Virus record (IMG/VR): IMGVR_UViG_3300045988_116681
Span: 48,632 to 112,631 of that record
DNA length: 64,000 nt
Strand: one strand, 5' to 3'
DNA from: a virus
Shown piece by piece: positions 19,101-49,942 of this stretch. The first letter of the stretch is position 1, and the number at the start of each line of letters is the position of its first letter. Position numbers and translations under genes: made by a program. The notes under the pieces are model-generated. The model was not told where the DNA came from, searched no databases, and saw only the letters and a list, made by a program, of their open reading frames with translations.

Positions 19101-20079
19101 AGTCCTTATAGTAATGCTTAATTTCAAATTCTGGAATCTTAGGCAATGCGGGTACACGAGTGGTCTTTTTAATGGTAATAGGCTGAACCTTGTCAGCAAT
19201 CTGATTAGTCGTGTCAAATAATACGTCAATCATTTCGTCATTAAAGCCACTTACATACATTTGTTCTCTAAGTTCTTGCGGAGTAAACAGATAGGTGGTC
19301 TGATAGAACTTCTCAGGTTCACGAGAATCACCGCCGTCTTTAGACTTTAGAAAAGCTGTATGAATCTTTCTATCTTCTGGACGCATGAAATGAGAATCAG
19401 TAGTAACAATAATAGGAATGTTTAACTGTTCATGCAACTTCCACAATGAATTGTTGACCTTAATCTGTTCTTCGTTATCTTCCCAGCAAGGCTGACATTC
19501 AAGATAGAAATTATCCTTGCCAAACGTTCGCCAATTCCACTGAATAAATTCTTTGGCTTTAGCCGTATCGCCAGTAAGAATGCACTTAGGCAAGAACCCG
19601 CCGATACATCCTGTGCTAACCGCCAAATGACCCTTGTCTTTACCTACGACTTCTTCAAAGTCTGAATAAAAACTTGGTCTGCGCAACTGACCTTTGTAAG
19701 TATAGCTTCTAAGCCATGCTCTTGCGGATAATTCATACATTTGCTTTAGACCAATCTCATCCAATACAATTACCAAATAATGCCAATAGTATGGACGGTC
19801 GTTTTCGCTAAAGCGCAGATTATCTTCTTCTTCTGACAGCAAATAAAACTCATTGGCAAAGATATGTTGGAACGGACGCTGTTTGTCCAAAGCATTGTAT
19901 GCTTTTTCAAGTTCTACATATCCGCTTACAGTTTGGTGGTCTGAAATAGCATAACCTCTCAGACCATTTTCATAGCACCAGTTTACACATTTAGGGATAT
20001 TGCAAATAGCGTCAGCAAAACGAAGAACAGCGGAACTGTATTCACTGTGATTGTGTAGTGAAGTATATGTGTTAATCAT
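16150..20079 (-). CDS. dnaE: DNA polymerase III alpha subunit (DnaE-type, PHP domain)
   Basis: 1309 aa. N-terminal PHP motif HNHSEYS, then polymerase core motifs. Confidence 0.9.
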   Translation of the reverse strand: MINTYTSLHNHSEYSSAVLRFADAICNIPKCVNWCYENGLRGYAISDHQTVSGYVELEKAYNALDKQRPFQHIFANEFYLLSEEEDNLRFSENDRPYYWHYLVIVLDEIGLKQMYELSARAWLRSYTYKGQLRRPSFYSDFEEVVGKDKGHLAVSTGCIGGFLPKCILTGDTAKAKEFIQWNWRTFGKDNFYLECQPCWEDNEEQIKVNNSLWKLHEQLNIPIIVTTDSHFMRPEDRKIHTAFLKSKDGGDSREPEKFYQTTYLFTPQELREQMYVSGFNDEMIDVLFDTTNQIADKVQPITIKKTTRVPALPKIPEFEIKHYYKDYYDKFPFVKYYATEGTLNERYYYYQVEKGLYEYNNIHPVNIEEYLAQINIEMEQVKGLGEAFDGECMADYFTVVQKVVDLIWTEGDSYVGIGRGSAGCYLTNKLLNITGIDPMLPETKEFYPWWRFCSIARSESIFDCDIDIQSFKKERIIQAIKDYFGWRRTCQCVTWGRLSAKTALERAATGLGISSDTVGYIKSLIPTVRGSIYSLKDCLYGNEKKGRAPVPEFVAEVKKYGDLLETALAFEGMIVSSGVHAGALNVLQGDYTETGSYMVSSNGAVCSQFNLHDAEYAGDLKFDLLSIDCLQTIRTCMELLLKNGKIEDKGSLRDTYNYYLSYDKLDKTTKEMWDLLPTMASAFQYDSKAGKEALRKIGAQNLTELTLANGLMRLAVADGEQPMDMYVRYRKNINEWYQDMTNYGIPQEEQEILKELLGNYCGLMIAQSTMMSVLMDERVCNFNLKESDKARKAVAKKNAEALAETEERLYRKGAECGRTKAFLDYLWKVQIEMSKSYAFDFSHSNEYSTECLQELNLYYKFPKIYWNAAVVITQAGVEDERDNVANTTDYGKIAGSVYKAKENGISVAPPPANHAEMSFGVDEANNTILFGLGGISSINAEIAQQIITNRPYSSFRDFYSRNSYQGTLITPSKFIQLIKAGCFDEFCPDRMRVMQAYFALSTPRKQTLTTANLAELQRIGCKLPNTLTMPLAFKKYVCSKQFLYGTHPKFKSKKIYWLDERALVFFDSMCRSQLEENVDWWYDEEGRTLVVDKSLEKLFKNVTEELKAYINQPEFLKMYNEQSIKARMRDKLPNMNVNHWSFEALSYYSNEHELACIDADRYNVTTFDKLPTEPVFVTKKYGKREWRQYQLSRIMGTVIARNDAHSTITVLDSNNNVVQARFDNHSYPFYKQQISEQHADGTKTVMDTSWFTRGQGLVLTGYRSEDTFRVKSYKNSIFPHKLQKILTINEDDGTMELQSYRYGYEPKEE

Positions 20080-20596
20080 AATATTTTAGTCCTCTTTCTT
20101 GCCATTCTTTAGGCATTTTAGTAACCCTGTTAAGCCAACGCCAAACTGTTGGTGGATTCATATTGTTGTGTTGTTGACAAAATTCTGGCAGTGAATGATA
20201 AATTATACCGTCACAAACAATGGATTTTTGAACATGAGTTGTTTTAACGTTCTTTCGACCTTTTGCGATACGATGGCAATGCTGTGGTGTATTGTTATTT
20301 TCTGTGCTGGTTGTCCAATACAAATTATCAGCACGATTGTTTGTCCTTATTTCGTCTTTATGCCCTACCTGTGGAAGATGGTCAGGGTTAGGGATAAACG
20401 CTTCAGCAACAATACGATGCAACAAACAAAGTTTCGTTTTTCCGTAATTGCAACGTGCCAATCTTAAACTTACATACTGATTATTTCCAATATAGGTAGA
20501 CATAATTTTGTTTGTAAATAAACTTTTAACTCTACCAAGATTGCTCACTTGATAGAATCCTTCATAACCTACAACGTCTTTCCAAATTTCTTCCAA
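20072..20596 (-). CDS. NUMOD4/HNH_3 homing endonuclease (free-standing; overlaps the dnaE start)
   Basis: EEIWKDVVGYEGFYQVSNLGRVKS (NUMOD4) and HRIVAEAFIPNP..VGHKDEIRTNNRADNLYW (HNH_3). Probable TTG start at 20596, 8 nt after AAGGAGG. Confidence 0.8.
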   Translation of the reverse strand: MEEIWKDVVGYEGFYQVSNLGRVKSLFTNKIMSTYIGNNQYVSLRLARCNYGKTKLCLLHRIVAEAFIPNPDHLPQVGHKDEIRTNNRADNLYWTTSTENNNTPQHCHRIAKGRKNVKTTHVQKSIVCDGIIYHSLPEFCQQHNNMNPPTVWRWLNRVTKMPKEWQERGLKYYD

Positions 20597-20645
20597 TATC
20601 AACCCCTCCTTAAAACAAAAATGGGAATAGCTTTTCACTACTCCC

Positions 20646-20674
20646 ATTCTATCACATATCTATTTACTTGTCAA
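20646..20674 (-). promoter_or_regulatory. sigma-A-type promoter
   Basis: TTGACA-17-TAGAAT with TGTGA upstream of the -10. Confidence 0.6.
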
Positions 20675-25238: not shown

Positions 25239-25544
25239 TTAGTGGAATAATAGCACTTGGATTCCATACCAATTTGTGAGACAATTCAAAGTAATATCGT
25301 GTTCTGTTATGCTGACAACCATCCGATTTGCGTTTTGAGTATAAAAATAGCCTGATTGCACAAAGGTTTCTGCAACGTATTCTGTTGATAAAGAAGGATA
25401 CAAACTTCCGCTTACCACAATCATTTTCACAGGAGCGTTGAGAGGAATCACTTTGTTGATACCCTGCTCTAATTCCCCTATTTCGACTGTTGTTACTTGA
25501 AGTGCTGTACCTTCCAACATTTCCTTCATTACTTTTGCATCCAT
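25239..25544 (-). CDS. family B small protein (B4)
   Basis: MDAKVMKEMLEG... It is a paralog of the proteins at 32610, 34998 and 40870. Confidence 0.6.
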   Translation of the reverse strand: MDAKVMKEMLEGTALQVTTVEIGELEQGINKVIPLNAPVKMIVVSGSLYPSLSTEYVAETFVQSGYFYTQNANRMVVSITEHDITLNCLTNWYGIQVLLFH

Positions 25545-25552
25545 TACTTACG

Positions 25553-25559
25553 CCCCCCC
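25553..25559 (-). repeat. G7 homopolymer 8 nt upstream of the B4 ATG
   Basis: Sense strand reads TTCAGTT-G7-CGTAAGTA-ATG. Confidence 0.95.
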
Positions 25560-25611
25560 AACTGAACGAGAAGTTTGTAAGTTGTGAGCGTCAGGAGGAT
25601 TGCTTACGCGC

Positions 25612-25656
25612 TCAACGTAAGCCCCCCCCCAGTGAAACAATGGTTTGGTTCTTCAT
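25612..25656 (-). CDS. leader ORF L6 (14 aa as assembled) containing a G9 tract
   Basis: AAGGAGG, 9 nt, then ATG. It translates to MKNQTIVSLGGGLR*, and the stop lies inside the hairpin GCTTACG-ttgagcg-CGTAAGC. Confidence 0.45.
   Translation of the reverse strand: MKNQTIVSLGGGLR
25622..25630 (-). repeat. G9 homopolymer in leader ORF L6
   Basis: Counted C9 on the plus strand. Confidence 0.95.
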
Positions 25657-29874: not shown

Positions 29875-30144
29875 TTAGTCTTTCTTTGGAACAGTATAAG
29901 ACTTAGCATTAGTGCTATCGCCCAACCCTGCTGTGGTAGGGTCATTGAGCGCGTTCCAAATATTTGATGCAACAAGGAATAGGCAGTAAGGATTTGATAC
30001 AGTGCCCTTAATCACGTTCCATACGCCCATCCAAGTTGTGAGGTCTGCCGCTGTCAGACCTGCATAAGCAAGTGCAGTGGCAAAAGCACCAATAATGATT
30101 TGTACCCAAAAGGTCGGGTTCTTAATTCTCACTTTTAGATTCAT
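29875..30144 (-). CDS. holin (Phage_holin_1 / LL-H type)
   Basis: KNPTFWVQIIIG..TWMGVWNV..NPYCL..DPTTAGLGDS pattern, directly downstream of the endolysin. Confidence 0.8.
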   Translation of the reverse strand: MNLKVRIKNPTFWVQIIIGAFATALAYAGLTAADLTTWMGVWNVIKGTVSNPYCLFLVASNIWNALNDPTTAGLGDSTNAKSYTVPKKD

Positions 30145-30147
30145 ACT

Positions 30148-31878
30148 TTATTCCTCCCCATACATACCCGCTCTATCGTTAATAACAAGAACTCGTAGCA
30201 AATCTTCACTCAAGTCAAGACCCTTGCCATTGCCCTTGAGATAGCCCTTGTCTACCAACTTCTTAATAGTTGCCTTGCCCCAGTCTGGAACTTCAGCAAC
30301 ACTATTATATACCTTATTATACTTGTCGTATACTTGTTCAGCAATCTTACCAGCCACTTGATTAGCAATCTTCTTTGCTTCGGACTGAGCAATAGCTGTA
30401 GTTTCTGCCTTAGTCATGTCATCAACCTTTCTAACCATTTGTAAAAATTCTGTCCATTGTTCATAGTGTTTTACAAAAGGTTCAGGACAGTTACCAACAA
30501 TAAAAGTTCTTCCCTTTTGACGAATAAGAATATATCCTGTTGGCACACTTACACACGAAACTCGTGCATTTCTTTTTTCAACACTATATTGTTTATCACC
30601 TATTGTATAATTACAAGTGGCAATATCTACACTATCATAATGATATTTTTTATAATGATTTTTAGCATGAAGAGCCTTTTTTGCCCTCATTCCATGCGTA
30701 GCACAAATAGCTTGAACAACGTCTAAATTTTTTTCAATAACGGAGCAATAATTATTTTTTGCTACGCATCCATCAACTTGTAACAATTCTTCCCAAAAAA
30801 CTTCAAATTGATTTTGTGTCATTTCAATCCAATCATAGGTAAATTGTTTATCAGATAACCATTTGCAACACCAATCATAAGTAATTTTGTCAAATTTTAC
30901 ATAAATTAGAGTACTTCCATCATTTTTATAAGAAATCTGAGGAACAATTTCCATTTCATTTAACAAAGACAGTAATCTATCAATTTTTCTTTGTCTTTTA
31001 AAATGGAACTCGATACCATAAATTGAATTAGAAGGTTTCCATCTTCTATAATGACCATCACCTTGAAGCCATACTAAAAAACGAATTTCATTGTCTGAAA
31101 GAGGTAGACCTTTATTTTCATAAAAACCGTTGGTTTTTATCATGGTTGTTCTGCCTTTGTCAAGAATCTCTTGATAAGATTTTTCTTCCCATCTCTCGTT
31201 AGCGTGATAAAAACGCGCCCACATACGGTGATTAGCAGTAGCTTCAAAATTATGGTTCTTTAGAACTTCAGCTTCGTAAGGCTCAACCACGCTACTAACA
31301 GCGCCAAAAGATAGTCTATCAGTATTAGTGTCATACTGCATAACTTCTTCTCCAACCTTAATATCTCCAAGAGCCTTCCAACCTTCTCGTGTTAGAAGTT
31401 CGGTTGAATCCAAAGGTAAACAATACTTATGCGTAACATGATAGTGCATACACACATGGTTAATATCAATACCATACTGTTCCATTAGCCACTGTACCAG
31501 CTTTACAGTGCGCTTCTGGGTTTCCATAGTAATTACATATTCACCGTTCTTCCAGTCGCTACACATTTCAATACCAATGGAATTAACGTTGCGACAGCTA
31601 TTGTAATAATAGCCTGTTTCACTACCACAATGCCATGCTGTGTTAGCAAGGTTTACAGTCTGCCAAATTTCATTCTCGTCAACAAAGAAATGTGCGCTTG
31701 CATTAAGCCCACCGCAACGAGCAAAATAATCTGCATTGTTCTTTGCAGTATCGCCCTTGCCAGCAGTAAAGTGAATAACAATCCATTGAATCTTATGCTT
31801 TACGCCATTCTTAGTTCGACCATACATGAAATTAGATTCATTACATTGCTTAAATTGAAAATAAGGTTTTTCTGCCAT
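30148..31878 (-). CDS. N-acetylmuramoyl-L-alanine amidase endolysin (Amidase_2) interrupted by an intein
   Basis: The exteins join as ..HVTHKY|CPEPF.., restoring the K.CP zinc-ligand motif. The N-extein carries the AHFFVD and GIEMC motifs. The C-terminal tail is a putative wall-binding region. Confidence 0.85.
   Translation of the reverse strand: MAEKPYFQFKQCNESNFMYGRTKNGVKHKIQWIVIHFTAGKGDTAKNNADYFARCGGLNASAHFFVDENEIWQTVNLANTAWHCGSETGYYYNSCRNVNSIGIEMCSDWKNGEYVITMETQKRTVKLVQWLMEQYGIDINHVCMHYHVTHKYCLPLDSTELLTREGWKALGDIKVGEEVMQYDTNTDRLSFGAVSSVVEPYEAEVLKNHNFEATANHRMWARFYHANERWEEKSYQEILDKGRTTMIKTNGFYENKGLPLSDNEIRFLVWLQGDGHYRRWKPSNSIYGIEFHFKRQRKIDRLLSLLNEMEIVPQISYKNDGSTLIYVKFDKITYDWCCKWLSDKQFTYDWIEMTQNQFEVFWEELLQVDGCVAKNNYCSVIEKNLDVVQAICATHGMRAKKALHAKNHYKKYHYDSVDIATCNYTIGDKQYSVEKRNARVSCVSVPTGYILIRQKGRTFIVGNCPEPFVKHYEQWTEFLQMVRKVDDMTKAETTAIAQSEAKKIANQVAGKIAEQVYDKYNKVYNSVAEVPDWGKATIKKLVDKGYLKGNGKGLDLSEDLLRVLVINDRAGMYGEE
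30490..31422 (-). mobile_element. intein (311 aa) with a LAGLIDADG homing endonuclease, inside the endolysin
   Basis: Starts CLPLDSTELLT..GDIKVGEEV (Hint N-terminus) and ends ..ILIRQKGRTFIVGN|C (Asn plus Cys+1). Two LAGLIDADG-like motifs: LVWLQGDGH and LLQVDGCV. Confidence 0.8.
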
Positions 31879-31892
31879 TATATCACTTCCTT

Positions 31893-31921
31893 TAGAGAAA
31901 GGGGAGAGACGAACTCTCCCC
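31893..31921 (-). terminator. candidate intrinsic terminator upstream of the endolysin
   Basis: GGGGAGAG-ttcgt-CTCTCCCC followed by TTTCTCT on the minus strand. Confidence 0.45.
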
Positions 31922-31928
31922 TTGATAA

Positions 31929-32144
31929 TTACTTATGAAGCAGACCGTTTTCTTCCAGTAGCTTACGATAAGGAATGCTTAGAAGTTCTGGTACACCAGT
32001 CTTTTCAGCACGCCACTGAATGTAAACAGCACGAGCGAGGTCGTCATGCTCGATGTTGTGAGCGTTATCCCACTTATCAAGTTGAACCCCAATATCTCCT
32101 TCAAGTTTTGCAATGTGTCGATGTTGTAGTTTGTAGTTGTACAT
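31929..32144 (-). CDS. hypothetical protein
   Basis: ATG at 32144 (MYNYKLQHRH..). Confidence 0.5.
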   Translation of the reverse strand: MYNYKLQHRHIAKLEGDIGVQLDKWDNAHNIEHDDLARAVYIQWRAEKTGVPELLSIPYRKLLEENGLLHK

Positions 32145-32167
32145 AATTTTTTCTTCCTTTCTTTTTG

Positions 32168-32590
32168 TTATGCGACTTTTATCCATTCTGTAGGATAACC
32201 AATAATTATTTTTGCAGTCGAAGAAGCAAAATAATCTTTTGCGATTTCTCCTTGCTTTTTAACATATATAATTTTATATTTAATTGTAAAATTATATGTT
32301 CGAGTAAGCGGAGTGCGAGAATAAATTTGTATACCAAATCCAACTTCTTTAGAATTGAGATATAGAGAATTATCGTCAGTAGTATAATAACCCGGTGGTT
32401 CTACATCTACTGTACCGCTTACCCACTGTAAGCCCACAGCAGTGTCTATTCCTAATAATTGAAGTGAAGCAGACGTACCATTTATGAAAGTATTGTTTAT
32501 TGCTAATTCAAAAGTTCCTTCATATACGCCCAACTCCGCAATGCCAGTATCAATTCCTTTACTTCCAAGGTGATTGACGATACTATTCAT
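32168..32590 (-). CDS. family A small protein (A, partner of B1)
   Basis: MNSIVNHLG... Own SD GAGGTGA. The start sits in an ATGA context. Confidence 0.65.
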   Translation of the reverse strand: MNSIVNHLGSKGIDTGIAELGVYEGTFELAINNTFINGTSASLQLLGIDTAVGLQWVSGTVDVEPPGYYTTDDNSLYLNSKEVGFGIQIYSRTPLTRTYNFTIKYKIIYVKKQGEIAKDYFASSTAKIIIGYPTEWIKVA

Positions 32591-32976
32591 GCAATCACCT
32601 CGTTTCTATTTAATAGAACGCTACTGCATAAGCCGAGTCTTTCCCTTGTAAATGGTCTATGGTCATTGTTTTGCCAGCGAATGTTACATCTATATAATCG
32701 TTTTCTGAGTTGGAGTCGGCATAATGGTAAGTTGTTGTTTGTTCGGAATAATAAATGCTTACTGAATATCCGTAATTGTATCCACTGGCAGAATAATACA
32801 TACTTAAAGAAACAAATTTCGGGACGTGAGAGAAAGTAAATTTTATTTCTTCGTTGTAGGCTTCTGCTTCTTTGTATTCCGCAGTTAAGCCTTGCACTTG
32901 TAAAGGCTCTCCCATAATCTTTCCGTTCATCTACTCTGCCCCCCCCAAGTCTCATTGAGGTTTGCATATTATACAT
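32587..32976 (-). CDS. leader ORF L2, which as assembled (G8) continues through all of B1 in the -1 frame and stops on the start codon of the A gene
   Basis: This is the same frame as track ORF 32587..33030. ATG at 32976 follows AAAGGA. Its TGA (32587-32589) overlaps ATG 32588-32590. Confidence 0.4.
   Translation of the reverse strand: MYNMQTSMRLGGGRVDERKDYGRAFTSARLNCGIQRSRSLQRRNKIYFLSRPEICFFKYVLFCQWIQLRIFSKHLLFRTNNNLPLCRLQLRKRLYRCNIRWQNNDHRPFTRERLGLCSSVLLNRNEVIA
32610..32930 (-). CDS. family B small protein (B1)
   Basis: MNGKIMGEPLQVQGLTAEYKE... A paralog of the 40870 protein (shared ..GLTAEY.. and ..VTF(A/S)GK.. segments). Confidence 0.65.
   Translation of the reverse strand: MNGKIMGEPLQVQGLTAEYKEAEAYNEEIKFTFSHVPKFVSLSMYYSASGYNYGYSVSIYYSEQTTTYHYADSNSENDYIDVTFAGKTMTIDHLQGKDSAYAVAFY
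32939..32946 (-). repeat. G8 homopolymer 8 nt upstream of the B1 ATG
   Basis: Sense strand reads GAGACTT-G8-CAGAGTAG-ATG. Confidence 0.95.
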
Positions 32977-33002
32977 ATTGCTCAAATTCCTTTCTGAGCA
33001 AT
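32977..33002. repeat. inverted repeat ATTGCTCA-10 nt-TGAGCAAT
   Basis: The TTGAGCAA motif in both orientations. The loop contains the leader SD. Confidence 0.8.
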
Positions 33003-33026
33003 GAGAAGGAGATGAAGGATAAAAAG

Positions 33027-33356
33027 TCAAGACAAAGTGCCTAATTCAAGATACTTAAAATAGGGTGAAATTGAATTATTATAATAGTTTTCAACCTTGA
33101 AATGCCCCTCCCCGAAATAGAACCACACCGCAGGACTATTTTCGCCAAAGGCACCATACGAGAACTCTATTACTTCCTTAAAAACACTCACTTTACCAAT
33201 CATTACGCTGTTGTCGGTCATCATCAACTTAAAATATAAACTCGCATCTGTTGTTGCAATTTTTACAACTGAGCTACCTTCTGCTACATCTTGATGAATA
33301 GCACTCTTAAAATGAATTGTTCCTTCTACACCCTTACCTGTTACAATCCCATCCAT
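33027..33356 (-). CDS. family A small protein
   Basis: MDGIVTGKG....LELGTLS. Confidence 0.65.
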   Translation of the reverse strand: MDGIVTGKGVEGTIHFKSAIHQDVAEGSSVVKIATTDASLYFKLMMTDNSVMIGKVSVFKEVIEFSYGAFGENSPAVWFYFGEGHFKVENYYNNSISPYFKYLELGTLS

Positions 33357-33406
33357 CAGCCGACACTTCCCTTCATGCCAGCCATCTCATTGCTCATATT
33401 AAATTT

Positions 33407-33469
33407 TAGGAGAATGCTAACGCATTGCCCCCCCCAACCGAAGTCAGGGTTGACTGAATGTTAAACATA
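33407..33469 (-). CDS. leader ORF L1 (20 aa as assembled)
   Basis: AAGGAGAA, 4 nt, then ATG. It translates to MFNIQSTLTSVGGGNALAFS*. Confidence 0.45.
33429..33436 (-). repeat. G8 homopolymer in L1
   Basis: Counted C8 on the plus strand. Confidence 0.95.
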
Positions 33470-33514
33470 ATGTTCTCCTTTTTGTGTAGTTATATTTGAG
33501 CAATGAGTAGAGGG

Positions 33515-33859
33515 TTATTCTAACAACCCAAAATCCACCGAGGAAATATACAAAGACAAATTATTATTGTTAAAACCAAAACCAACATATTCTATTCCTT
33601 CAGTATTAGTATAATCTATGCTAAACGAAGGAGAGTAGTCGCCTGAACTATTTCTAAAAGTAAAATAATTAGTACCTCTTAAAGTTTCATACTTAAAAAT
33701 GCTAATTTGTCCATATAAATCAACGATTTTAACATATGGCGCAATTCTGTCTACAAGAAAGTTAATATGGAACGTATTTAACGCATCGTCTTTATATGAT
33801 TTTTTACTCATGAATGTCAAAGCATTAGCAGTAAATGGCTTATTAACAATCCCATTCAT
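33515..33859 (-). CDS. family A small protein
   Basis: MNGIVNKPF....VDFGLLE. Confidence 0.65.
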   Translation of the reverse strand: MNGIVNKPFTANALTFMSKKSYKDDALNTFHINFLVDRIAPYVKIVDLYGQISIFKYETLRGTNYFTFRNSSGDYSPSFSIDYTNTEGIEYVGFGFNNNNLSLYISSVDFGLLE

Positions 33860-33969
33860 ACAGTCACCTGCTTTCGGTGACTCACATTGCTCAAATATTC
33901 AGTTGTTAGGGAGTTATTGCCCCCCCCCAAGTGAAGCATAAGTTCACTCAGAGAAAACTTGATACGCAT
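33856..33969 (-). CDS. leader ORF L3 (37 aa), terminating in ATGA on the start of the A gene
   Basis: AAGGAGTG SD. It translates to MRIKFSLSELMLHLGGGNNSLTTEYLSNVSHRKQVTV*. Its TGA overlaps ATG 33859. Confidence 0.5.
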   Translation of the reverse strand: MRIKFSLSELMLHLGGGNNSLTTEYLSNVSHRKQVTV

Positions 33970-34003
33970 GGTATCACTCCTTGTTGTTTAATTGAGCAAC
34001 GTG
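33883..34003. repeat. 12-bp inverted repeats (1 mismatch) CACATTGCTCAA / TTGAGCAACGTG flanking leader L3
   Basis: Arms at 33883-33894 and 33992-34003. Confidence 0.8.
33920..33928 (-). repeat. G9 homopolymer in L3
   Basis: Counted C9 on the plus strand. Confidence 0.95.
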
Positions 34004-34013
34004 TGTGATGTGA

Positions 34014-34415
34014 TTAGGATTTTAAGGCAAGCGCTAAATAGAAGCGAGTACCATCTTGGACATTATTTTTGAACAATCGGCATATTATACCAGTATTGAT
34101 AATGTTAAAATCACAATAATAAATATCGCTTGTTCCATTTGTAGTACCCGTTTTATATATTTTAGAACTTAATAAAACATGATTGCTTGTACTGCCACCT
34201 ATAACATCAGCCTTATACTCATATATAGATAGACACGGTGAAGCATAGTACCACGCATTGTCACAACCAATAAGCAAAAGCTTGCAACTATTGTGCGATT
34301 CTTCGTACCAATATAGTATCTGAAATTGTTCACTGGTAGCTTCTGCGGTGATAATATCATCAACATTGATACTTATGTCAGCCAGTTCAGCCAGCTTATT
34401 CACAATCCCATTCAT
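34014..34415 (-). CDS. family A small protein
   Basis: MNGIVNKLAEL... ATG at 34415; the track ORF begins at the GTG one codon earlier. Confidence 0.65.
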   Translation of the reverse strand: MNGIVNKLAELADISINVDDIITAEATSEQFQILYWYEESHNSCKLLLIGCDNAWYYASPCLSIYEYKADVIGGSTSNHVLLSSKIYKTGTTNGTSDIYYCDFNIINTGIICRLFKNNVQDGTRFYLALALKS

Positions 34416-34493
34416 CACATGACCCCCTTACTTGCGTATAGGAGGTTGCCAATCCTGTTGCTCAAAGGAAAGGCGTTAATGACCATTAGAAGG

Positions 34494-34532
34494 TCAGAAG
34501 AACGCCCCCCCCAAGTTAAAGCGAAGGTTCAT
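34494..34532 (-). CDS. leader ORF L4 (12 aa as assembled)
   Basis: AAAGGAGAA SD. It translates to MNLRFNLGGAFF*. Confidence 0.4.
   Translation of the reverse strand: MNLRFNLGGAFF
34505..34512 (-). repeat. G8 homopolymer in L4
   Basis: Counted C8 on the plus strand. Confidence 0.95.
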
Positions 34533-34588
34533 AATTTTGTTCTCCTTTGTTTAATTTTGAGCAACATTAGATGGGTGGTTAGATTGAT

Positions 34589-34978
34589 TTATCCAAACAC
34601 ATAATAATGAACGTTTTTTATTTTGCCACTTTGATTATTCAAATGAAAAGTTATTTTATTGTTTGAATAATCATAGTTCAAATTTTCTATGTCTATAGAA
34701 GAATATCGCACATAAGTTGGGTTGTCACCATCATATTCATAAAGTCTATATGAAAACCCCGAAGTTGAGTTGAGTGGAATCATTTGAACAAATTGCGCTC
34801 TAATTAACATAGATGACGGATTTGGAATAACCACTACTGCCATCGCTTGTGCGTCTATTGGCAATGATTGAAAATCAAAAATAGGAAGTGATACTTCATG
34901 AATGTTACTTGAATAACTACCTTCAAATGAAAAACACTTGTTTTGATTTACAAGTACAGGATTCACGATACCATTCAT
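34589..34978 (-). CDS. family A small protein (partner of B3)
   Basis: MNGIVNPVL... ATG at 34978 in a TGATG context. Confidence 0.65.
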   Translation of the reverse strand: MNGIVNPVLVNQNKCFSFEGSYSSNIHEVSLPIFDFQSLPIDAQAMAVVVIPNPSSMLIRAQFVQMIPLNSTSGFSYRLYEYDGDNPTYVRYSSIDIENLNYDYSNNKITFHLNNQSGKIKNVHYYVFG

Positions 34979-34997
34979 CAAGCCACCCCCTTGAGGG

Positions 34998-35309
34998 TCA
35001 GCCTAAGAATGTCACCAATAAGGGGTCGCTTACGTTGTTGTATTCTATCCGAACAGTGCCAACAGAATAACGAACTATCTGCACTCTTGCTGAAGTAACA
35101 CTTTGGTCTATTAAATATAATTTGTCTGCCGAAAGTAAAGGTAAATAAATCATTGCACCTATCAACGCACTTATGTTGTCTACACTTATTGTGCAAAATA
35201 AAGGTGTTACATCGAAGCCAAAAGTTAGCCCTCTGGTAATGGATTTTGCTTGCAATACTTTTAACCCGCTCATGGATTTTTCTACTTCTTGAATAATCTT
35301 TCCATCCAT
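34998..35309 (-). CDS. family B small protein (B3)
   Basis: MDGKIIQEVEKSM... ATG at 35309 in a TAATG overlap with leader L5. Confidence 0.6.
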   Translation of the reverse strand: MDGKIIQEVEKSMSGLKVLQAKSITRGLTFGFDVTPLFCTISVDNISALIGAMIYLPLLSADKLYLIDQSVTSARVQIVRYSVGTVRIEYNNVSDPLLVTFLG

Positions 35310-35410
35310 TAGTACGCCCACCTCTCTTGTTGCTCAACCGAGAGGTAATCATCGGTGGGCTTACTTGGCGTATGCCCCCCCCAGTGACGGGGAGTTTTAG
35401 TCTTAATCAT
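35309..35410 (-). CDS. leader ORF L5 (33 aa), terminating TAATG on the B3 start
   Basis: GGAGAA SD. It translates to MIKTKTPRHWGGHTPSKPTDDYLSVEQQERWAY*. Confidence 0.45.
   Translation of the reverse strand: MIKTKTPRHWGGHTPSKPTDDYLSVEQQERWAY
35375..35382 (-). repeat. G8 homopolymer in L5
   Basis: Counted C8 on the plus strand. Confidence 0.95.
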
Positions 35411-35422
35411 ATGTATTTCTCC

Positions 35423-35830
35423 TTACATATTGTCTACAATTTCATGCATCTTATCTTCTAAATGAATTGCAATGAACGATAGTAACGCCCATGCAAAGCA
35501 GAAGAATAGATTGCACTGTCCAAAAAAGAAGGTAAATGGTAAGTGGCTGTAGTCCCACACACCCATGTGTAAGATATTATTCAGCACTACACCAGTCAAT
35601 CCTTCAAGAACCGTGATAACCACAGTTCCAATTACTACTTGTTGCCATTGCTTGTATTGGTGTTTTCCTTCATTTAGCAATCCTACAATGACGAAACATA
35701 AGCCGCCGAGAACTGCCATAGTCCAGTTGGTTGGTTTACCCTTCCAAATGGTTTCGATGGCGAAGTAAATCCCGCCACCCATCACACCAAATAGCGCATG
35801 AACAAGTATTGAATTTAGTTTATGCTTCAT
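35423..35830 (-). CDS. polytopic membrane protein
   Basis: Four or more hydrophobic helices. ATG at 35830 lies just after the upstream stop. Confidence 0.55.
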   Translation of the reverse strand: MKHKLNSILVHALFGVMGGGIYFAIETIWKGKPTNWTMAVLGGLCFVIVGLLNEGKHQYKQWQQVVIGTVVITVLEGLTGVVLNNILHMGVWDYSHLPFTFFFGQCNLFFCFAWALLSFIAIHLEDKMHEIVDNM

Positions 35831-35834
35831 AGCT

Positions 35835-36521
35835 TTAAGCCAACTTAGCAAGCATAGCGTCCATCTGAGCCTTTGCAGAAGCCAATACCTTAACTTCTTG
35901 CTCTGCTAACTTACCAGTTAGTTCAGTTGCAAGGGTAATCGCTTTAACAGTTTCCTTATCCTCACAGCTATTAGCAAACTGCCGCAAAAGATTGCAATGT
36001 GTGGTCAGTTTAGTAATGAGCGTTTGCATTGCTACATACAAACTAACAATATCAGCCTTTGGATAAATCACACATTCCTTGCCGTCAGCGTGATAAGGAA
36101 ATTCCTCAACGCCCATAACAACTGCATTGAAGATGTTGCCAATGTTGGCTTGGTCGTTTGCTGTTAGGCTGAAATGTTCATCGCCGTAAGAAGTCTTAAC
36201 GTCAACGCCAGCGTAAATAGTCTGCTCAGTAGTATCATTGAGTGACTTAATAGCTTCTGCACGAACTTCTTCAATGGTCGGCTCGTATGGTGTCGGCTTA
36301 ACTTCTTCGTCTACATTGATATGAACAGCATTACCAGTACACTTCCATACCTTGTAATCAGCCTTTTCGTATGCTACCAGTAGCTTGCCATCATCAGAAG
36401 TGAACATTAGTTCATCGCCAAGTTCAATATCGTGATTGCCGTTAAGATACATAGTACATACCTTATCGTTCAGCATACCAGTAACATTGTTATATGTCTT
36501 GCCATTAGTTAGTAGTTTCAT
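35835..36521 (-). CDS. hypothetical protein (tail-fibre-associated, DUF4376-like)
   Basis: 228 aa, coupled by ATGA to the tail-fibre-like gene. The family call comes from recalled sequence patterns only. Confidence 0.5.
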   Translation of the reverse strand: MKLLTNGKTYNNVTGMLNDKVCTMYLNGNHDIELGDELMFTSDDGKLLVAYEKADYKVWKCTGNAVHINVDEEVKPTPYEPTIEEVRAEAIKSLNDTTEQTIYAGVDVKTSYGDEHFSLTANDQANIGNIFNAVVMGVEEFPYHADGKECVIYPKADIVSLYVAMQTLITKLTTHCNLLRQFANSCEDKETVKAITLATELTGKLAEQEVKVLASAKAQMDAMLAKLA

Positions 36522-36919
36522 TACTGCACCTCACCTACAACTTGAACAACAAACCCTGATTGTGGAGCAGAATTACCGCTTGTAGTAAGAGTTAGTGTGT
36601 TATTACCTGTCTGACCATAGTCTGCAAGCAGAGCGAACGCAGCTTTTTCATTTGCCGCTGTTGCCGAGTCAGAAGATGGTAGAAGATAAATGATTGGCTG
36701 ATAGCGCATTGTTTCAGCAAGACCTTGAATAGTCTGTGTCTGCTTGTAAACGCCGCCCTGTAGTGTCCAGCCAGCTTTCGTAAAGGTTGCAGTACCGAAC
36801 ACTGTTTTGCCAACTTCAAGGTTGGTTCGTGCTCCCAGCGCCGTAGTAGCGCCAGTACCGCCATCGGGGATTGAAACTGGGGTGGAAATACCCTGTCCCA
36901 GTATACCGCCAAAACCCAT
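36521..36919 (-). CDS. tail-fibre-like protein
   Basis: VSIPDGGTGATTALGARTNL matches the GGTGATTAxxAR.NLG motif that recurs at the N-termini of phage tail-fibre proteins. Confidence 0.6.
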   Translation of the reverse strand: MGFGGILGQGISTPVSIPDGGTGATTALGARTNLEVGKTVFGTATFTKAGWTLQGGVYKQTQTIQGLAETMRYQPIIYLLPSSDSATAANEKAAFALLADYGQTGNNTLTLTTSGNSAPQSGFVVQVVGEVQ

Positions 36920-36975
36920 ACTTTGTCACTTCCTTTTCTATAAATTTAGGCGAATCTCTCGCCTTTGATATTAGC

Positions 36976-37004
36976 ATTATACCACATCCTTATACACTTG
37001 TCAA
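36976..37004 (-). promoter_or_regulatory. sigma-A-type promoter
   Basis: TTGACA-17-TATAAT. Confidence 0.7.
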
Positions 37005-37026
37005 GGGGTAAATTGTAAATAATTTG

Positions 37027-38118
37027 TTAATTATTCAGAATATCAATCGTCCGCGCTTCATACAGCTTTTGCCATGTCTGAAAGTCGCGGTCTACTGCAT
37101 TTTCTTTACGCTCAAGTAGACCCAAGCTATCCCACACAACATCAACTTGTGCAAGACCAGACCATAGTTCAGCTTGCTTCATAATCTTGTTGTTCCATTG
37201 CTCAAACTCTGCGTCTGTACCGCCAGTAGCATCATTATCTACAATAAGGACAACATGGTTAACGCCCAACTTCAGCAGTTGATTCCTGCGCTGTAAGCCA
37301 AGCTGTGAGCCAAACATAGCGACTGCCGTTGATTGTGAGCCAAGAAAACTATGCAATTTGAGCACCGCTTTCTCGCTTTCGGCAATCATTACAGTACCAG
37401 TACGCTCTATTTCATATTGATTCTGCGCCAATCCGTATAGAACTGCATTAGTAGGGAACTTATAGATAGTGCCATCCAACAGTTGCAAAGGTCGATATTT
37501 ACCATTTATTGCATTTTCACCCCAATACCTACAGCGAATCCCTACCAAGTCATAATTTTCATTAAACACAGGAATGGTCGTTCCCCATTCTCGCCCATAC
37601 CAACCGATACGAAACAAGGCTTGCGTTTCTTCGCTTATACCTTCATTTACCCATGCTTGACACGGCATATTGGGTATAGTGTCAAGAATAGATGCGTCAT
37701 AAGTCGGCAATAAGCTACCGCCATTTCGTACTGTAATGAACTTCTCAAGTCCAGACCAATCCGTAATATTGGGGTTGGCTACACGCTGAACTTGAGAAGA
37801 TTCAATACCAGTAACATCAAGAATGTAATTTACCGCGTCTATGAAAGAGCAAGGTTGCTTTAGTAGAGATAATCGTGTTTGTGTTAGTGAGATAATGTCG
37901 TATGAACGCCCAGCGGTTAGACCAAGGTAAACGCTTGTGTCTGGATAAAATAGTAATTTTGCTGAACCATCTAAAGCATTAACATTCTTATCGCCAGTAA
38001 AATAAATAATTTCATTTGGGCGTTCCATAAAGATAGGAATACCCAACGACTTCATTATCTTCTTGTGGTCATCAATAGTTAATCGGGCTTTCAGAGCCTT
38101 AGTATTTATCTTAGCCAT
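37027..38118 (-). CDS. DNA primase (Toprim domain)
   Basis: MIAESEKAV (Toprim Glu) and LIVDNDATGG (DxD). Confidence 0.65.
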   Translation of the reverse strand: MAKINTKALKARLTIDDHKKIMKSLGIPIFMERPNEIIYFTGDKNVNALDGSAKLLFYPDTSVYLGLTAGRSYDIISLTQTRLSLLKQPCSFIDAVNYILDVTGIESSQVQRVANPNITDWSGLEKFITVRNGGSLLPTYDASILDTIPNMPCQAWVNEGISEETQALFRIGWYGREWGTTIPVFNENYDLVGIRCRYWGENAINGKYRPLQLLDGTIYKFPTNAVLYGLAQNQYEIERTGTVMIAESEKAVLKLHSFLGSQSTAVAMFGSQLGLQRRNQLLKLGVNHVVLIVDNDATGGTDAEFEQWNNKIMKQAELWSGLAQVDVVWDSLGLLERKENAVDRDFQTWQKLYEARTIDILNN

Positions 38119-40487: not shown

Positions 40488-40847
40488 TTATTGTAAAGTT
40501 CCAACTGCGATTTTGGAAAGTATACTATTTATTTGTATATTGGCATTGATTTGTACAAAATTAGCATTTATATAATATTGTGTGCCTACATAAATTTCTG
40601 CTATACCTCCCCAATTATCACTGTAAAAACGAATTGTGGTATAATTTGAAGATTGCAGTGTGCTAAGTTGTAACATAACACTACTATCATAAATTCCATA
40701 AATTATTATATATTTTTCTTTATGGTTTTCTTCTTGCATAATAGAAGTGGTATAACGACTTGAAGTTACTTCAGACAAATCATAATATTCTTCAGCCACA
40801 AAAGAAACATCAGACAGAACAGGCGATTGCGCGATAATTGCATTCAT
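40488..40847 (-). CDS. family A small protein (partner of B2)
   Basis: MNAIIAQSP....IAVGTLQ. SD GAGGTGA. ATGA context. Confidence 0.65.
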   Translation of the reverse strand: MNAIIAQSPVLSDVSFVAEEYYDLSEVTSSRYTTSIMQEENHKEKYIIIYGIYDSSVMLQLSTLQSSNYTTIRFYSDNWGGIAEIYVGTQYYINANFVQINANIQINSILSKIAVGTLQ

Positions 40848-40869: not shown

Positions 40870-41193
40870 TTAGAAGAAGCCTACTGCAAAAACCTTGCTT
40901 GCACTGACTGAAGATAATTCTATATTTTTCCCAGAAAATGTTACATAAAATGAATTGGTTTGTGAACCTTCCAAAGCGTAATACACATAGCAATTGTCTG
41001 GAAACCATGCTATATTCACGCTGTATGCTGCGTTTGAAGTGTACCTTTGAGGACTCCAAAGTGTTAGGCTTACAAAACTCGGCGCTTGGGAAAAAGAAAG
41101 CGTGACTTCTTGTTGATGGACTTCTTCTTCGAGATACTCTGCCGTCAGCCCGTTTTCCTGCTCCACAAATTCCTTCATTACTTTTGCGTTCAT
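40870..41193 (-). CDS. family B small protein (B2)
   Basis: MNAKVMKEFVEQENGLTAEY... Confidence 0.65.
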   Translation of the reverse strand: MNAKVMKEFVEQENGLTAEYLEEEVHQQEVTLSFSQAPSFVSLTLWSPQRYTSNAAYSVNIAWFPDNCYVYYALEGSQTNSFYVTFSGKNIELSSVSASKVFAVGFF

Positions 41194-41201
41194 TTAATCT
41201 G

Positions 41202-41209
41202 CCCCCCCC
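41202..41209 (-). repeat. G8 homopolymer 8 nt upstream of the B2 ATG
   Basis: Sense strand reads GCGAGTT-G8-CAGATTAA-ATG. Confidence 0.95.
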
Positions 41210-41243
41210 AACTCGCGCCAAGGTTGACAGATTACAGCTTACA

Positions 41244-41294
41244 TCACCGTGTAAGCCCCCCCCAAGTGAAACGGAGGTTTGGTAAATTGAACAT
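41244..41294 (-). CDS. leader ORF L7 (16 aa as assembled)
   Basis: AAAGGAGGA SD. It translates to MFNLPNLRFTWGGLTR*. Confidence 0.45.
   Translation of the reverse strand: MFNLPNLRFTWGGLTR
41256..41263 (-). repeat. G8 homopolymer in L7
   Basis: Counted C8. Followed by the hairpin GCTTAC-acggtgat-GTAAGC. Confidence 0.95.
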
Positions 41295-46681: not shown

Positions 46682-47518
46682 TTAGAACACCAGTCCCTTC
46701 ATAGCTTCGTTAATCTGAGCCTGTTCATGCTTAATGTAACGAGTGGTAGTAGCGATAGAATTATGCCCCAACATTGCACTAATAGTTGCTACACCTACGC
46801 CATTAGCATTAGCAATAGTAGCCGCTCCCGCTCTAAGCGCATGATTAGTAATTTCATTCCAGAACGGAATGCCAGCACGCTTTGCAGTCAACTTCAGCAT
46901 CTTGTTAAGATTGCTATTATCAAGATGTTCACCACGTTCAGAAGTGAACAAATACTCACCATCTGCACGCTCAAACTTGATGTAGTTATCAATGCTTTCC
47001 TTTGCCTGTTCATTGACATAAATCGTGCGTTCCTTCGCGCCCTTGCCGAGAATAACAATCTGATTATCAATCATGTTATTGTAGTCCTCAAAAGTGATGG
47101 AAGTTAACTCGCTGAAACGAAGTCCAGTAGAGCAATACAGAGCAATAACTGCAATATCTCTGAACTTTTTGCAGTTGTGAAGCATCTTGCGTACATCTTC
47201 TGCGGAGATATAATGCTTTTCCTTGTTCTTAATCTTAGGAGAAGTAAGGTCAAGAGCAGGATTCTCATTGATAACCTTGGCAGAAGTCAGAAACTTGAAG
47301 TAATTCCTAACTGCACTAATCTGGATGTTCATGGATGCGGTAGACAGATTGCTGATAGACGCTTTCCACGCGGTCAAGTCGAGGAAAGAAATTTCTTCGA
47401 CAGGCTTATTAACGAATGCCAGCATCTTATCTACATAAAGCAAATAGTTCTTGATGGTGTTTTCGGACTTCTTATCTGCTACCAGAGAAGCCTTGTAATA
47501 CTCGTTAATGTTAGTCAT
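46682..47518 (-). CDS. tyrosine recombinase (phage integrase / XerC-D family)
   Basis: ..TGLRFSEL.., HALRAGAAT, LGHNSIATTTRYIK (R..H.R..Y). ATG at 47518 follows AAGGAGAG. Confidence 0.85.
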   Translation of the reverse strand: MTNINEYYKASLVADKKSENTIKNYLLYVDKMLAFVNKPVEEISFLDLTAWKASISNLSTASMNIQISAVRNYFKFLTSAKVINENPALDLTSPKIKNKEKHYISAEDVRKMLHNCKKFRDIAVIALYCSTGLRFSELTSITFEDYNNMIDNQIVILGKGAKERTIYVNEQAKESIDNYIKFERADGEYLFTSERGEHLDNSNLNKMLKLTAKRAGIPFWNEITNHALRAGAATIANANGVGVATISAMLGHNSIATTTRYIKHEQAQINEAMKGLVF

Positions 47519-47549
47519 TGAAATCTCTCCTTCGTTTCTTGATGTGCTT

Positions 47550-47578
47550 ATTGTAACATGGCACAAGCCAAAAGTCAA
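47550..47578 (-). promoter_or_regulatory. sigma-A-type promoter
   Basis: TTGACT-17-TACAAT. Confidence 0.65.
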
Positions 47579-47584
47579 TAGGTT

Positions 47585-47638
47585 TTTTCAAAAAATCAGA
47601 AAAGAATTTCCCACCCTCGGCAGGTATGAGGGTGGGAA
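47585..47638 (-). terminator. intrinsic terminator / right-end hairpin of the IscB element
   Basis: TTCCCACCCTC-atacctgcc-GAGGGTGGGAA followed by a T-rich run on the minus strand. Confidence 0.6.
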
Positions 47639-47652
47639 TTAAAATGGAGGTT

Positions 47653-48912
47653 TTACATTTTTATTGTTTGAATCATTTGCGTAGTTCTTGCTGTAATTCT
47701 TTTACATCTTTGGAGTTTTGGTGTTTTATATCCTCTTGGCAAATAAGAAAAATTAAGACGGTTTCCTTCAAAATCCATTAAAACGACTTGCCCTTGTATA
47801 CCTCTACCTTTAATATAACATTCTACTCCAAAATATCTGACTTTATCAAATTTTCTGAACCCGTTAATTTTTGTTGTGGTTATACGCCTTTCAGACCGAA
47901 CACCTTTTGTTTGCTGAAAGTCGCCTTCGGGAACACATTTCTTTTTATAAAGATTGGTATTTATTGTAAAATTTTTACCTTGTGTCGCTATTACGCAAGC
48001 ATCATAATAATGTTCTTTATCCACTTTTAATTGCAAACGATTAAACTTAGTAATATATCCATAAGTCTCTATTGCTTGCGGATATAATCTAAAAAGCTGT
48101 GTTCGTATACTATTCATTTGAGTGGCAAATTTGAGAACACCTTTCGCTTTTCCTTCTTGCTTGAGAATTATTTTCCCATTGTGTAATTTTTTATGACAAG
48201 TATGACAGAGAGTTATCAGATTGTTTTCTTCGTCAGACCCACCTTGGCTACGAAAAATTATATGATGAACTTCCAATCTTTTATCTTTATGTTTATTTTT
48301 ACAATATTGACAAGTATAGTTATCACGATTAAGCACCTTTGCTTTTGTGTTTTCAAACCCATAATTGACTCCTTTTTGATACCCCCAATGTCGAATTTCA
48401 GCGTTAGCAAGCAAAGGGTTTTTCAACAAATGAGTATCAAATTGGCTTGTTTCAAATACTATTTCAGAAATAGGCAAAATACTTTTAATAAATTCTATTT
48501 CTTTCACATGACTATACAATTTACTTACCATTGTTGGGCTAAACCGATTTTTTCTAAAAGAGTTAGCACGATTTAACCATCTTGGTTTTCTATAACGAGT
48601 TTTACGACTTCTTCTGTTTCTACGATAAGAAGCTCTACGAGTCATTTTATTAGTAATATTATTTCTTACTATTACTTCTGACATATATACTATCTTTCCC
48701 TTATCCGTAGCCACAGCCGTACCAAAAGTTCCGCTTCCAGTATCAACACCCAAAGTCAATTTTTGAATATAATTTGTAGAATCGTTAAGCAGTTTAATCG
48801 TAAAAGGTTCACGCCTTTTTACTTTTGCTTTACCTTGTTTAAGTAATAATCTTGCAATTACATTTGTGCAAGGCATTAAGGGCTTGTTGTTTTTAGAAAC
48901 TACATAAACCAT
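47653..48912 (-). CDS. iscB: IscB RNA-guided nuclease (PLMP, split RuvC, HNH)
   Basis: KPLMPC (PLMP), LGVDTGSGTFG (RuvC-I), Arg-rich bridge helix RRASYRRNRRSRKTRYRKPRW, EIVFETSQFD (RuvC-II), CQYC..HHIIFRSQGGSDEENNLITLCHTCH (HNH), HYYDACVIA (RuvC-III). Confidence 0.9.
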   Translation of the reverse strand: MVYVVSKNNKPLMPCTNVIARLLLKQGKAKVKRREPFTIKLLNDSTNYIQKLTLGVDTGSGTFGTAVATDKGKIVYMSEVIVRNNITNKMTRRASYRRNRRSRKTRYRKPRWLNRANSFRKNRFSPTMVSKLYSHVKEIEFIKSILPISEIVFETSQFDTHLLKNPLLANAEIRHWGYQKGVNYGFENTKAKVLNRDNYTCQYCKNKHKDKRLEVHHIIFRSQGGSDEENNLITLCHTCHKKLHNGKIILKQEGKAKGVLKFATQMNSIRTQLFRLYPQAIETYGYITKFNRLQLKVDKEHYYDACVIATQGKNFTINTNLYKKKCVPEGDFQQTKGVRSERRITTTKINGFRKFDKVRYFGVECYIKGRGIQGQVVLMDFEGNRLNFSYLPRGYKTPKLQRCKRITARTTQMIQTIKM

Positions 48913-49913: not shown

Positions 49914-49942
49914 ATTATATCACATAACAACTAAGTTGTCAA
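49914..49942 (-). promoter_or_regulatory. sigma-A-type promoter (tRNA operon)
   Basis: TTGACA-17-TATAAT. Confidence 0.7.

Follow-up and report, generated by a model that had tools for sequence, protein, structure and literature searches.

Here we describe a candidate translational switch in a human-gut phage of about 113 kb, of which a 64-kb stretch (IMG/VR record IMGVR_UViG_3300045988_116681, positions 48,632 to 112,631; hereafter the window) was analysed. The system centres on an array of seven small genes, all genuine open reading frames (ORFs) on the minus strand, five of them of type A and two of type B, served by five short leader ORFs that each contain a tract of eight or nine G residues. 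We consider it probable, at roughly three chances in four, that tract length sets the frame in which a leader is translated and that this frame gates the next cistron by translational coupling, the gene itself staying intact. Every comparative test that the available sequences allow agrees with such gating and supports it. The original prediction, made from the letters of the window alone, had proposed a coupling switch that leaves the gene undisrupted, and the conserved leader layout, the quick stops in the OFF states, the hairpins over the Shine-Dalgarno (SD) sequences and the stop-free +2 frame of the B genes all speak for it. The paralogous small genes with G8-G9 leader tracts on which that prediction was built are real, their ORFs and tracts having been located, and they reach beyond the interval it covered: it had the array right, whereas the system as a whole is larger, with three-state modules, two-tract leaders, loci at 25.5, 41.2 and 64.0 kb and tracts in methyltransferase genes.

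Leader frames, tract lengths and the second frame of the B genes

Each leader was rebuilt with tracts from G6 to G11 and then translated (coordinates in Table 1). In each of them an ATG lies 6-9 nt after an AAGGAG-like SD and the frame is open as far as the tract, and exactly one length class (modulo 3) ends each array leader as TAATG, TGATG or ATGA on the ATG of the gene, a rule that had been predicted and that is true of all five leaders. The strong leader SDs that had been reported alongside it stand in general but not at the leader with its ATG at 32976, where the SD is weaker, and the flank given as common to the tracts, (A/C)(A/C)CTT, occurs in only two of the five (AACTT at 34505-12 and CACTT at 33920-28), the others reading GACTT, CGGTT and TCACT. 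No tract class of the array leaders gives an in-frame fusion of leader and gene; a frame-shifted N-terminal extension was considered and rejected, since no class is in frame with the gene.

In L5, the first leader, G8 and G11 end as TAATG on the B3 start (ON), G9 brings an early stop, and G7 and G10 run through B3 in its +2 frame; the assembled G8 is the coupled form. L4 reaches the A2 start as TGATG with G7 or G10, and its assembled G8 stops after 12 codons (OFF). L3 meets the A3 start as ATGA with G9 or G6 and is ON as assembled (G9), and L2, for which the same two lengths give TGATG on the A4 start, is assembled as G8 with an early stop (OFF). At L1, G9 and G6 give ATGA on B1, G7 places a TAG abutting the B1 ATG, and the assembled G8 crosses B1 in the +2 frame and ends as ATGA on the A5 start. 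The assembled states claimed earlier are as found for L5, L4 and L3; those given for L1 and L2 are each true of one leader, but with the labels swapped relative to map order.

For a wider view, 80 leaders from the window and 18 related loci were scored. All 80 have an SD and ATG and are open to the tract; exactly one overlap class exists in 72 of them, and the other eight carry two tracts in series, for which one of the nine length combinations gives the overlap. In the non-coupled classes a stop follows the tract after 2-19 nt (median 11 nt) and in 102 of 112 cases precedes the 3' arm of the long-range stem described below. The leaders form at least 11 clusters less than 80% alike, and an overlap-ending open frame is present in all 11; the chance of such a frame in shuffles is 0.11-0.45 per cluster, and the product over the 11 clusters is 3e-7, a figure that overstates independence because the clusters are paralogues. 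Among genomes with at least three scored array modules (loci L001-L019), exactly one module is coupled in 9 of 14, a sample too small to tell one-at-a-time selection from chance.

The relatives were fetched by anchoring on the neighbouring fibre-like and membrane-protein genes, which yielded two contigs of about 114 kb from IMG/VR together with 17 close relatives found in human-gut metagenomes, and identical-protein look-ups added nine more loci. The architecture recurs in independent assemblies from several projects, and comparison of the leaders shows the layout kept in the window and 18 related loci despite diverged leader sequences. Every run is G on the coding strand in all related loci, with no C runs of six or more, and tract lengths span G6-G12. 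Rather than being invariant across related phages, which would have spoken against a switch, the lengths differ between otherwise identical genomes. Over 3.8 kb, locus L079 departs from the window by one substitution and four indels, all four in tracts (G8 to G12, G8 to G9, G9 to G8 and G8 to G6), and is elsewhere 99.97% identical; L080, L086 and L087 show the same tract-confined pattern, and four other contigs are identical to the window. Where orthologous tracts share identical 120-nt flanks, 40% of the pairs are unequal in length, and since the differing fraction stays flat with flank divergence, tract length seems to have reached mutational equilibrium. In some orthologues the tract is interrupted or shorter, as in GAGGGGGTG and cacttgaGGGGGG (L007 at about 3.7 kb; L014 at 10469; L016 at 10470), and these may be locked switches.

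In all 20 scored B-type modules the read-through class is an ORF of 125-150 codons in the +2 frame of the B gene, and in all 20 it ends as ATGA or TGATG on the start of the next gene, which begins A-like in 19 modules and B-like in one. The +2 frame is stop-free in 24 of 28 distinct B genes, their +1 frame holding 7-18 stops, and a stop-free alternative frame was found in just one of 77 A genes, which occupies a B position. The stop-free stretch runs to 95-110 codons in divergent B genes, and its presence in genes so highly diverged argues for selection on the reading frame; translation appears to be the only explanation for the missing stops. Frame 0 of the B genes behaves as a real protein, to judge from the pattern of codon changes and an AlphaFold2 model of B1: compared with the +2 frame it shows more third-position and fewer amino-acid changes in the two most informative ortholog groups, with little or no difference in the others. 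Modules in which A follows B are predicted to have three outputs, namely B (with A probably following), a conduit to A alone, and an early stop. A would probably follow B because the A start region lies in a hairpin spanning the B stop, predicted at -13.8 kcal/mol for A1 and B3. The tract 8 nt before the B start, found in the leader with its tract at 32939 and as the second tract of two-tract leaders, would act as a selector and the upstream tract as a gate.

Every leader type is predicted to form a hairpin of -9 to -16 kcal/mol over the SD directly upstream of the gated start, with the SD-like G-rich stretch of the gene as its 3' arm and in many cases a GAAA-type loop; the three hairpins that the original prediction had quoted (33861-33883, 34424-34448 and 35317-35341) exist as minimum-free-energy structures. 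The stems are diverse (AGUCACC/GGUGACU, ACAGCAC/GUGCUGU, GCUGGCA/UGUCGGC, UGCACC/GGUGCA and ACCUCC/GGAGGU), and the pair count, built from each sequence's own fold, speaks to that diversity only and is not an independent test of covariation. Windows of 46 nt at gated starts have a predicted mean of -12.7 kcal/mol against -6.2 kcal/mol for 72 other genes of the window (p = 2e-11). A long-range stem of 12 bp, CATTGCUCAAA with UUUGAGCAAUG, encloses the leader SD, ATG, tract and early stops; over 20 distinct leaders it is 92% paired, with compensatory changes at two positions, and its edge mismatches are G.U seven times and A.C once, which fits pairing in the transcript. From the stop positions, its 3' arm is reached only by a ribosome in the coupled frame. 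The two arms of L1 (32995-33001 and 32978-32984) lie side by side and fold into a hairpin whose loop holds the leader SD. Most tracts are followed by a CUCC-like motif, which RNAfold pairs with the G run or the leader SD. Across leader types we found no conserved stimulatory structure at the usual spacing of 5-9 nt, and a search of 24-43 kb against Rfam at a permissive E-value gave no match.

Proposed mechanism and alternative explanations

The sequences place the module's only strong and exposed ribosome-binding site in the leader ORF. Beyond the facts of the sequence and the polymorphism across genomes, we infer the following steps. In the coupled class, ribosomes would go on for 44-96 nt beyond the tract, crossing the 3' arm of the long-range stem and the SD hairpin, and stop on the ATGA, TGATG or TAATG over the gene start, so that RNA unfolding and/or re-initiation leads to translation of the gene; ribosomes in the other classes would stop 2-19 nt past the tract, leaving the hairpin shut and the gene silent. 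In B-then-A modules one class would enter the stop-free +2 frame across B and end on the A start, and at two loci a gate tract and a selector tract would operate in series. With at least eight modules per half-genome, replication slippage would then give progeny with differing subsets of small, hypervariable beta-sandwich proteins. We also lean, if only slightly, towards a fuller picture, that of a ribosome-routing switchboard in which tracts gate or select cistrons, B genes are held stop-free in a second frame purely as a conduit, each module has up to three heritable outputs, each genome has thousands of combinations, and the products share an N-terminal docking or packaging peptide.

Several points weigh against the switch as proposed. 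The coupled class is present in only 19 of the 80 assembled leaders, a proportion that would fit stochastic switching and would also fit coupling not being the productive state. ON and OFF were assigned purely from sequence, the hairpin energies are predictions, and the consensus lengths of G8-G12 in metagenomes could be partly shaped by the assembly of mixed populations; slippage of RNA polymerase or of the ribosome on the run could also blur the states. The mechanism leaves the role of the long-range stem unexplained, and TTGAGCAA is kept without a partner in L5, where it occupies (35330-35337) part of the loop of an SD hairpin at about 35314-35352. Finally, searches of the seven small proteins against Pfam and PHROGs gave no match, and the A4 and B1 models had no Foldseek match at E <= 0.001.

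A different use of the same tracts would be slippage of RNA polymerase or ribosomal frameshifting on the G run, sampling all frames to give fixed product ratios, with the DNA variation a by-product. Long homopolymers are slippery for polymerases and ribosomes, the three-outcome B-A modules would also suit a ratio-setting device, and the tRNA-Gly(CCC) and tRNA-Leu(CAA) of the phage match the tract codons. A ratio device would be expected to hold one length, however, whereas the DNA tract varies from G6 to G12 among near-identical genomes, and the stimulatory structure sought at 5-9 nt was not found across leader types; we regard this explanation as unlikely. Less probable again is an action independent of frame, with the leader ORFs incidental and tract length altering either RNA pairing (in cis with C/U-rich sequence, or in trans with a small RNA) or promoter or operator spacing. 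A C/U-rich small RNA, RepG, is documented to target a G repeat of variable length within an mRNA leader (PMC8295292), and the CUCC-like motif and its RNAfold pairings would suit such an action. The constraints seen here are nevertheless codon-periodic: SD and ATG open to the tract in 80 leaders, an exact stop/start overlap, closure of both other frames within 19 nt, and a B-gene +2 frame stop-free over 95-110 codons. No promoter hexamers lie beside the tracts, and pairing of the RepG type sits poorly with a repeat that is part of an SD- and ATG-bearing ORF in 80 of 80 leaders rather than untranslated, and with the lack of an Rfam match.

The inverted repeats TTGCTCAA...TTGAGCAA might instead be recombinase sites that make the leaders of about 100 bp invertible, polyG being secondary. 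Such repeats, of 11-14 bp, do flank the leaders and co-vary (arms CATTGCTCAAA and TTTGAGCAATG lie about 100 nt apart), and the phage has a tyrosine recombinase gene 11 kb away (46682-47578), though nothing ties it to the repeats. Yet none of about 80 leaders flanked by the repeats, in about 30 loci, is inverted, all tracts being G on the coding strand; the arms of L1-type leaders are only 9-11 nt apart, too short to invert; the first leader has a single arm; and the excess of G.U over A.C at the stem edges (7 vs 1) fits pairing in the transcript, so that inversion seems very improbable. We give the least credence to artefact or decay, in which the length differences would come from errors in homopolymer sequencing or in assembly, and the leaders would be functionless remnants of frame-shifted N-terminal extensions. 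Homopolymers are error-prone, and consensus calling of mixed populations in metagenomes is arbitrary; against this, the same architecture appears in independent assemblies from several projects, no tract class fuses in frame, indels are confined to tracts in sequences otherwise 99.97% identical, and the SDs, overlap stops, hairpins and conduit frame are kept across diverged paralogues, which points to selection.

The array, its proteins and other features of the phage

The coordinates of the array and of the related loci in the window are collected in Table 1. The A-type proteins start with MNGIV, MDGIV or MNSIV and the B-type proteins with MNGKI or MDGKI. The fibre-like genes and the array lie between one promoter-like site of consensus strength and one terminator-like site, the probable start and end of the operon that holds the array. 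Between modules we found no promoters or terminators beyond chance, weaker internal promoter-like matches being no commoner than in shuffles, and control of single genes must therefore act after transcription start.

Table 1. Coordinates of array genes, leaders, tracts and flanking features in the window
Feature	Position	Strand	Details
Sigma-70-like consensus promoter	36976-37004	-	TTGACA-17-TATAAT with TG; upstream of fibre-like genes
Tail-fibre-like genes (two)	35835-36919	-	132 aa and 228 aa; directly upstream of array; PHROG tail-fibre families
Membrane protein	35423-35851	-	PF06541, phrog_20274; 3' end abuts first leader (L5)
Leader L5	35309-35410	-	ATG 35410; G8 35375-35382; before B3
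B3 +2-frame ORF	34978-35352	-	no stop; ends TGATG on A1 start
B3 gene	34998-35309	-	103 aa
A1 gene	34589-34978	-	129 aa; without leader of its own
Leader L4	34415-34566	-	ATG 34532; tract 34505-34512; 5' arm core 34558-34564; 3' arm core 34458-34464; SD hairpin 34424-34448
A2 gene	34014-34415	-	133 aa
Leader L3	33856-34001	-	ATG 33969; tract 33920-33928; 5' arm core 33993-33999; 3' arm core 33887-33893; SD hairpin 33862-33882
A3 gene	33515-33859	-	114 aa
Leader L2	33354-33505	-	ATG 33468; tract 33428-33435; 5' arm core 33497-33503; 3' arm core 33390-33396; SD hairpin 33358-33383
A4 gene	33027-33356	-	109 aa
Leader L1 (selector type)	32928-33003	-	ATG 32976; G8 32939-32946, 8 nt before B1 ATG
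B1 +2-frame ORF	32587-33030	-	no stop; ends ATGA on A5 start
B1 gene	32610-32930	-	106 aa
A5 gene	32168-32590	-	140 aa
Terminator-like hairpin with T run	31903-31921	-	after 85-aa gene 31929-32186
Array G tracts (C on + strand)	35375-82; 34505-12; 33920-28; 33428-35; 32939-46	-	G8; G8; G9; G8; G8
Two-tract leader (41 kb)	41193-41294	-	ATG 41294; gate tract 41256-41263 (G8); selector tract 41202-41209 (G8)
Genes after 41-kb leader	40870-41193; 40488-40847	-	B-type; A-type
Two-tract leader (25 kb)	25544-25656	-	ATG 25656; tracts 25622-25630 (G9), 25553-25559 (G7)
Genes after 25-kb leader	25239-25544	-	B-type; next gene starts 25216
A-type gene and G8 tract (64 kb)	63592-64000	-	gene 63592-63951; tract 63993-64000; leader cut by window edge
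In-ORF tracts in three DNA methyltransferase genes	9718-9725; 10551-10558; 11065-11073	-	region 9718-11073

Clustered at 90% identity, the A family makes about 30 clusters among 1.84 billion proteins, and at 50% identity it makes 44, all unnamed; the loci studied here encode 76 distinct A and 28 distinct B proteins. The termini are conserved (MNGIVTGKxEK at the start, and LExGTLE at the end of A) and the middles hypervariable. AlphaFold2 models of A4 (pLDDT, the predicted local distance difference test, 88; first 11 residues disordered) and of B1 (pLDDT 88.6) are all-beta sandwiches, with the conserved N-terminal 11-15 residues disordered in both. Treating A and B as one family was rejected, hhalign likeness being limited to the first 13 residues. 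Because third codon positions within this N-terminal peptide vary, the peptide is conserved as protein, and this common element is consistent with a docking or packaging signal. A PDB sequence search with the A-family profile gave no match, and the weak Foldseek matches (E = 0.01-0.1, TM-score 0.36-0.53) are mostly to fibre tips, adenovirus fibre heads and tailspike ends. The small proteins had been put forward as probable virion or host-interaction proteins, for which the gene neighbourhood and this weak fold resemblance are the sole basis, whereas Pfam and PHROGs lend nothing. In view of the Foldseek result at E <= 0.001 we did not adopt a receptor-binding label; the adjacent fibre-like genes make receptor binding a reasonable guess, but the copies at 25, 41 and 64 kb stand among replication genes, and packaged or injected effectors are equally open.

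The array tracts belong to a genome-wide feature. Within the window there are 15 G8 matches, in 12 G8-G9 tracts, against 0.19 expected from dinucleotide-preserving shuffles, and there is one G7 run besides. Eleven of these 13 runs are G on the coding strand, eight of them in the same kind of short leader, some of which lie outside the array at 25.5, 41.2 and 64.0 kb; the other two (10551-58 and 11065-73) are C on the coding strand. Of the nine length combinations possible in the 41-kb leader, one gives an overlap with the B start, and another carries the read-through as far as an ATGA at the A-type start. The methyltransferase genes (9082-11203, minus strand; D12/Dam-like, N6_N4 and EcoRI-methylase-like), each with an in-ORF G8, C8 or C9 run, look like classical phase-variable genes, that is, in-ORF contingency loci, in this phage; the Dam-like gene is split at its G8, and G7 would restore a single ORF of 237 aa. 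In the related loci L001-L019, A/T runs of at least eight are nearly absent (3 in about 300 kb, at an A+T content of 61%) and G runs are strongly enriched. The phage carries genes for tRNA-Gly(CCC) and tRNA-Leu(CAA) (50578-50652 and 52322-52407, minus strand), which decode the tract codons GGG and UUG (UUG GGG GGG), and among the Gly codons of 33 long ORFs GGG accounts for only 5%.

Further searches for relatives added little. A blastn search of 30000-37900 against INPHARED phages gave no match, and an IMG/VR scan for ATTGCTCAA-N85-112-TTGAGCAAT returned 55 loci, in which a G run lay between the arms only in the already known contig, the rest being chance matches. A search with the A-family alignment recovered the same contig only, because the protein middles are too variable for tblastn. 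The scan of genome contigs found only a 2.6-kb phage piece, L078 (CAKVMU010000225.1), binned in a 'Candidatus Melainabacteria' metagenome-assembled genome, a placement too weak to indicate the host of the phage. The holin and amidase are of Gram-positive type.

Elsewhere in the window, all on the minus strand, the gene for the anaerobic ribonucleotide reductase NrdD (2312-5285) is split into 4095-5285 and 2312-3277 by an HNH/NUMOD homing-endonuclease ORF (3422-3940). The endolysin (30148-31878) has an Amidase_2 domain at residues 28-153, followed by an insertion of about 310 residues from CLPLD to IVGN|C with a LAGLIDADG-like motif, FLVWLQGDGHY; the insertion is intein-like by eye and gave no match in Pfam. 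The tyrosine recombinase (PF00589, 46682-47578) adjoins a 419-aa protein with RRXRR and HNH domains (region 46682-48912) that may be IscB-like. A DnaE-type Pol III alpha is followed by an HNH/NUMOD4 ORF, and DnaB, Toprim primase, RecD-like, RecJ-like and sigma-factor-like proteins are also encoded (16150-20647 and 49920-50588).

Relation to known systems and significance

Phase variation by repeat slippage classically works through gene breakage or promoter re-spacing, and Mu Gin and P1 Cin inversion and diversity-generating retroelements are known as diversifiers of phage host range. Like these diversifiers, the phage population described here would offer alternative variable proteins beside fibre genes; unlike them, it shows no inversion, and neither a reverse transcriptase nor a template repeat was identified in the region. 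In Campylobacter phages, hypermutable polyG tracts occur in receptor-binding genes (Sorensen et al. 2021, Cell Rep 35:109214, as presented in PMC12823448), and both systems have several G-run contingency loci near tail-fibre genes, which in Campylobacter phages yield phenotypic subpopulations. The Campylobacter tract lies inside the regulated ORF and truncates its protein, whereas here it lies in a separate leader ORF with no fusing class and control would act through the stop/start overlap and release of the SD hairpin; in this window only the three methyltransferase tracts share the layout described there. Contingency loci of T2/T4 and other coliphages (Gomez, Barrick and Waters, bioRxiv 2025, PMC12633550) likewise depend on polymerase slippage at short repeats in phage genomes and serve there as bet-hedging, but they are in-ORF frameshifts, mostly in short A/T runs, without a dedicated leader, coupling or multi-state routing.

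Coupled translation with an inhibitory structure at the ribosome-binding site of the downstream gene is established for MS2 coat-lysis and rpmI-rplT (reviewed in PMC12548453), with the same NTGA (-4) and TGATG/TAATG (-1) overlaps and an SD-sequestering hairpin, opened in those cases by the upstream ribosome. There the upstream gene is fixed, whereas here it is a leader of about 12-40 codons with its frame set by a mutable tract. In Helicobacter pylori the tlpB mRNA carries in its leader a variable G repeat that is the target of the small RNA RepG (PMC8295292), and in both cases an mRNA-leader G run that varies in length adjusts expression post-transcriptionally, as documented there and proposed here; the tlpB repeat is untranslated, pairs with a small RNA and gives graded output, whereas the present run lies inside an ORF under frame-periodic constraints. 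Our full-text literature searches found no account of a mutable tract in a leader ORF gating a cistron by coupling, nor of a gene whose second frame is held open to serve as a conduit. Phage repeat contingency loci and coupling at masked sites are known already, then, and the tract in a leader ORF and the second-frame conduit would be the new elements.

With the mutable run placed in a dedicated leader, the regulated protein is never altered, and the device would allow a module to be routed to several states (B with A, A alone, or off) and two tracts to work as an AND gate. Its compact design might be reused as a synthetic stochastic switch. For annotation, such leaders and 'frameshifted' states are readily mistaken for errors. 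If the reading is true, the system would represent a new class of contingency locus and a natural dual-frame constraint that exists solely for translational control, and an uncultured lineage of human-gut phages would be bet-hedging on many rapidly evolving proteins, with a bearing on host range or counter-defence in the gut.

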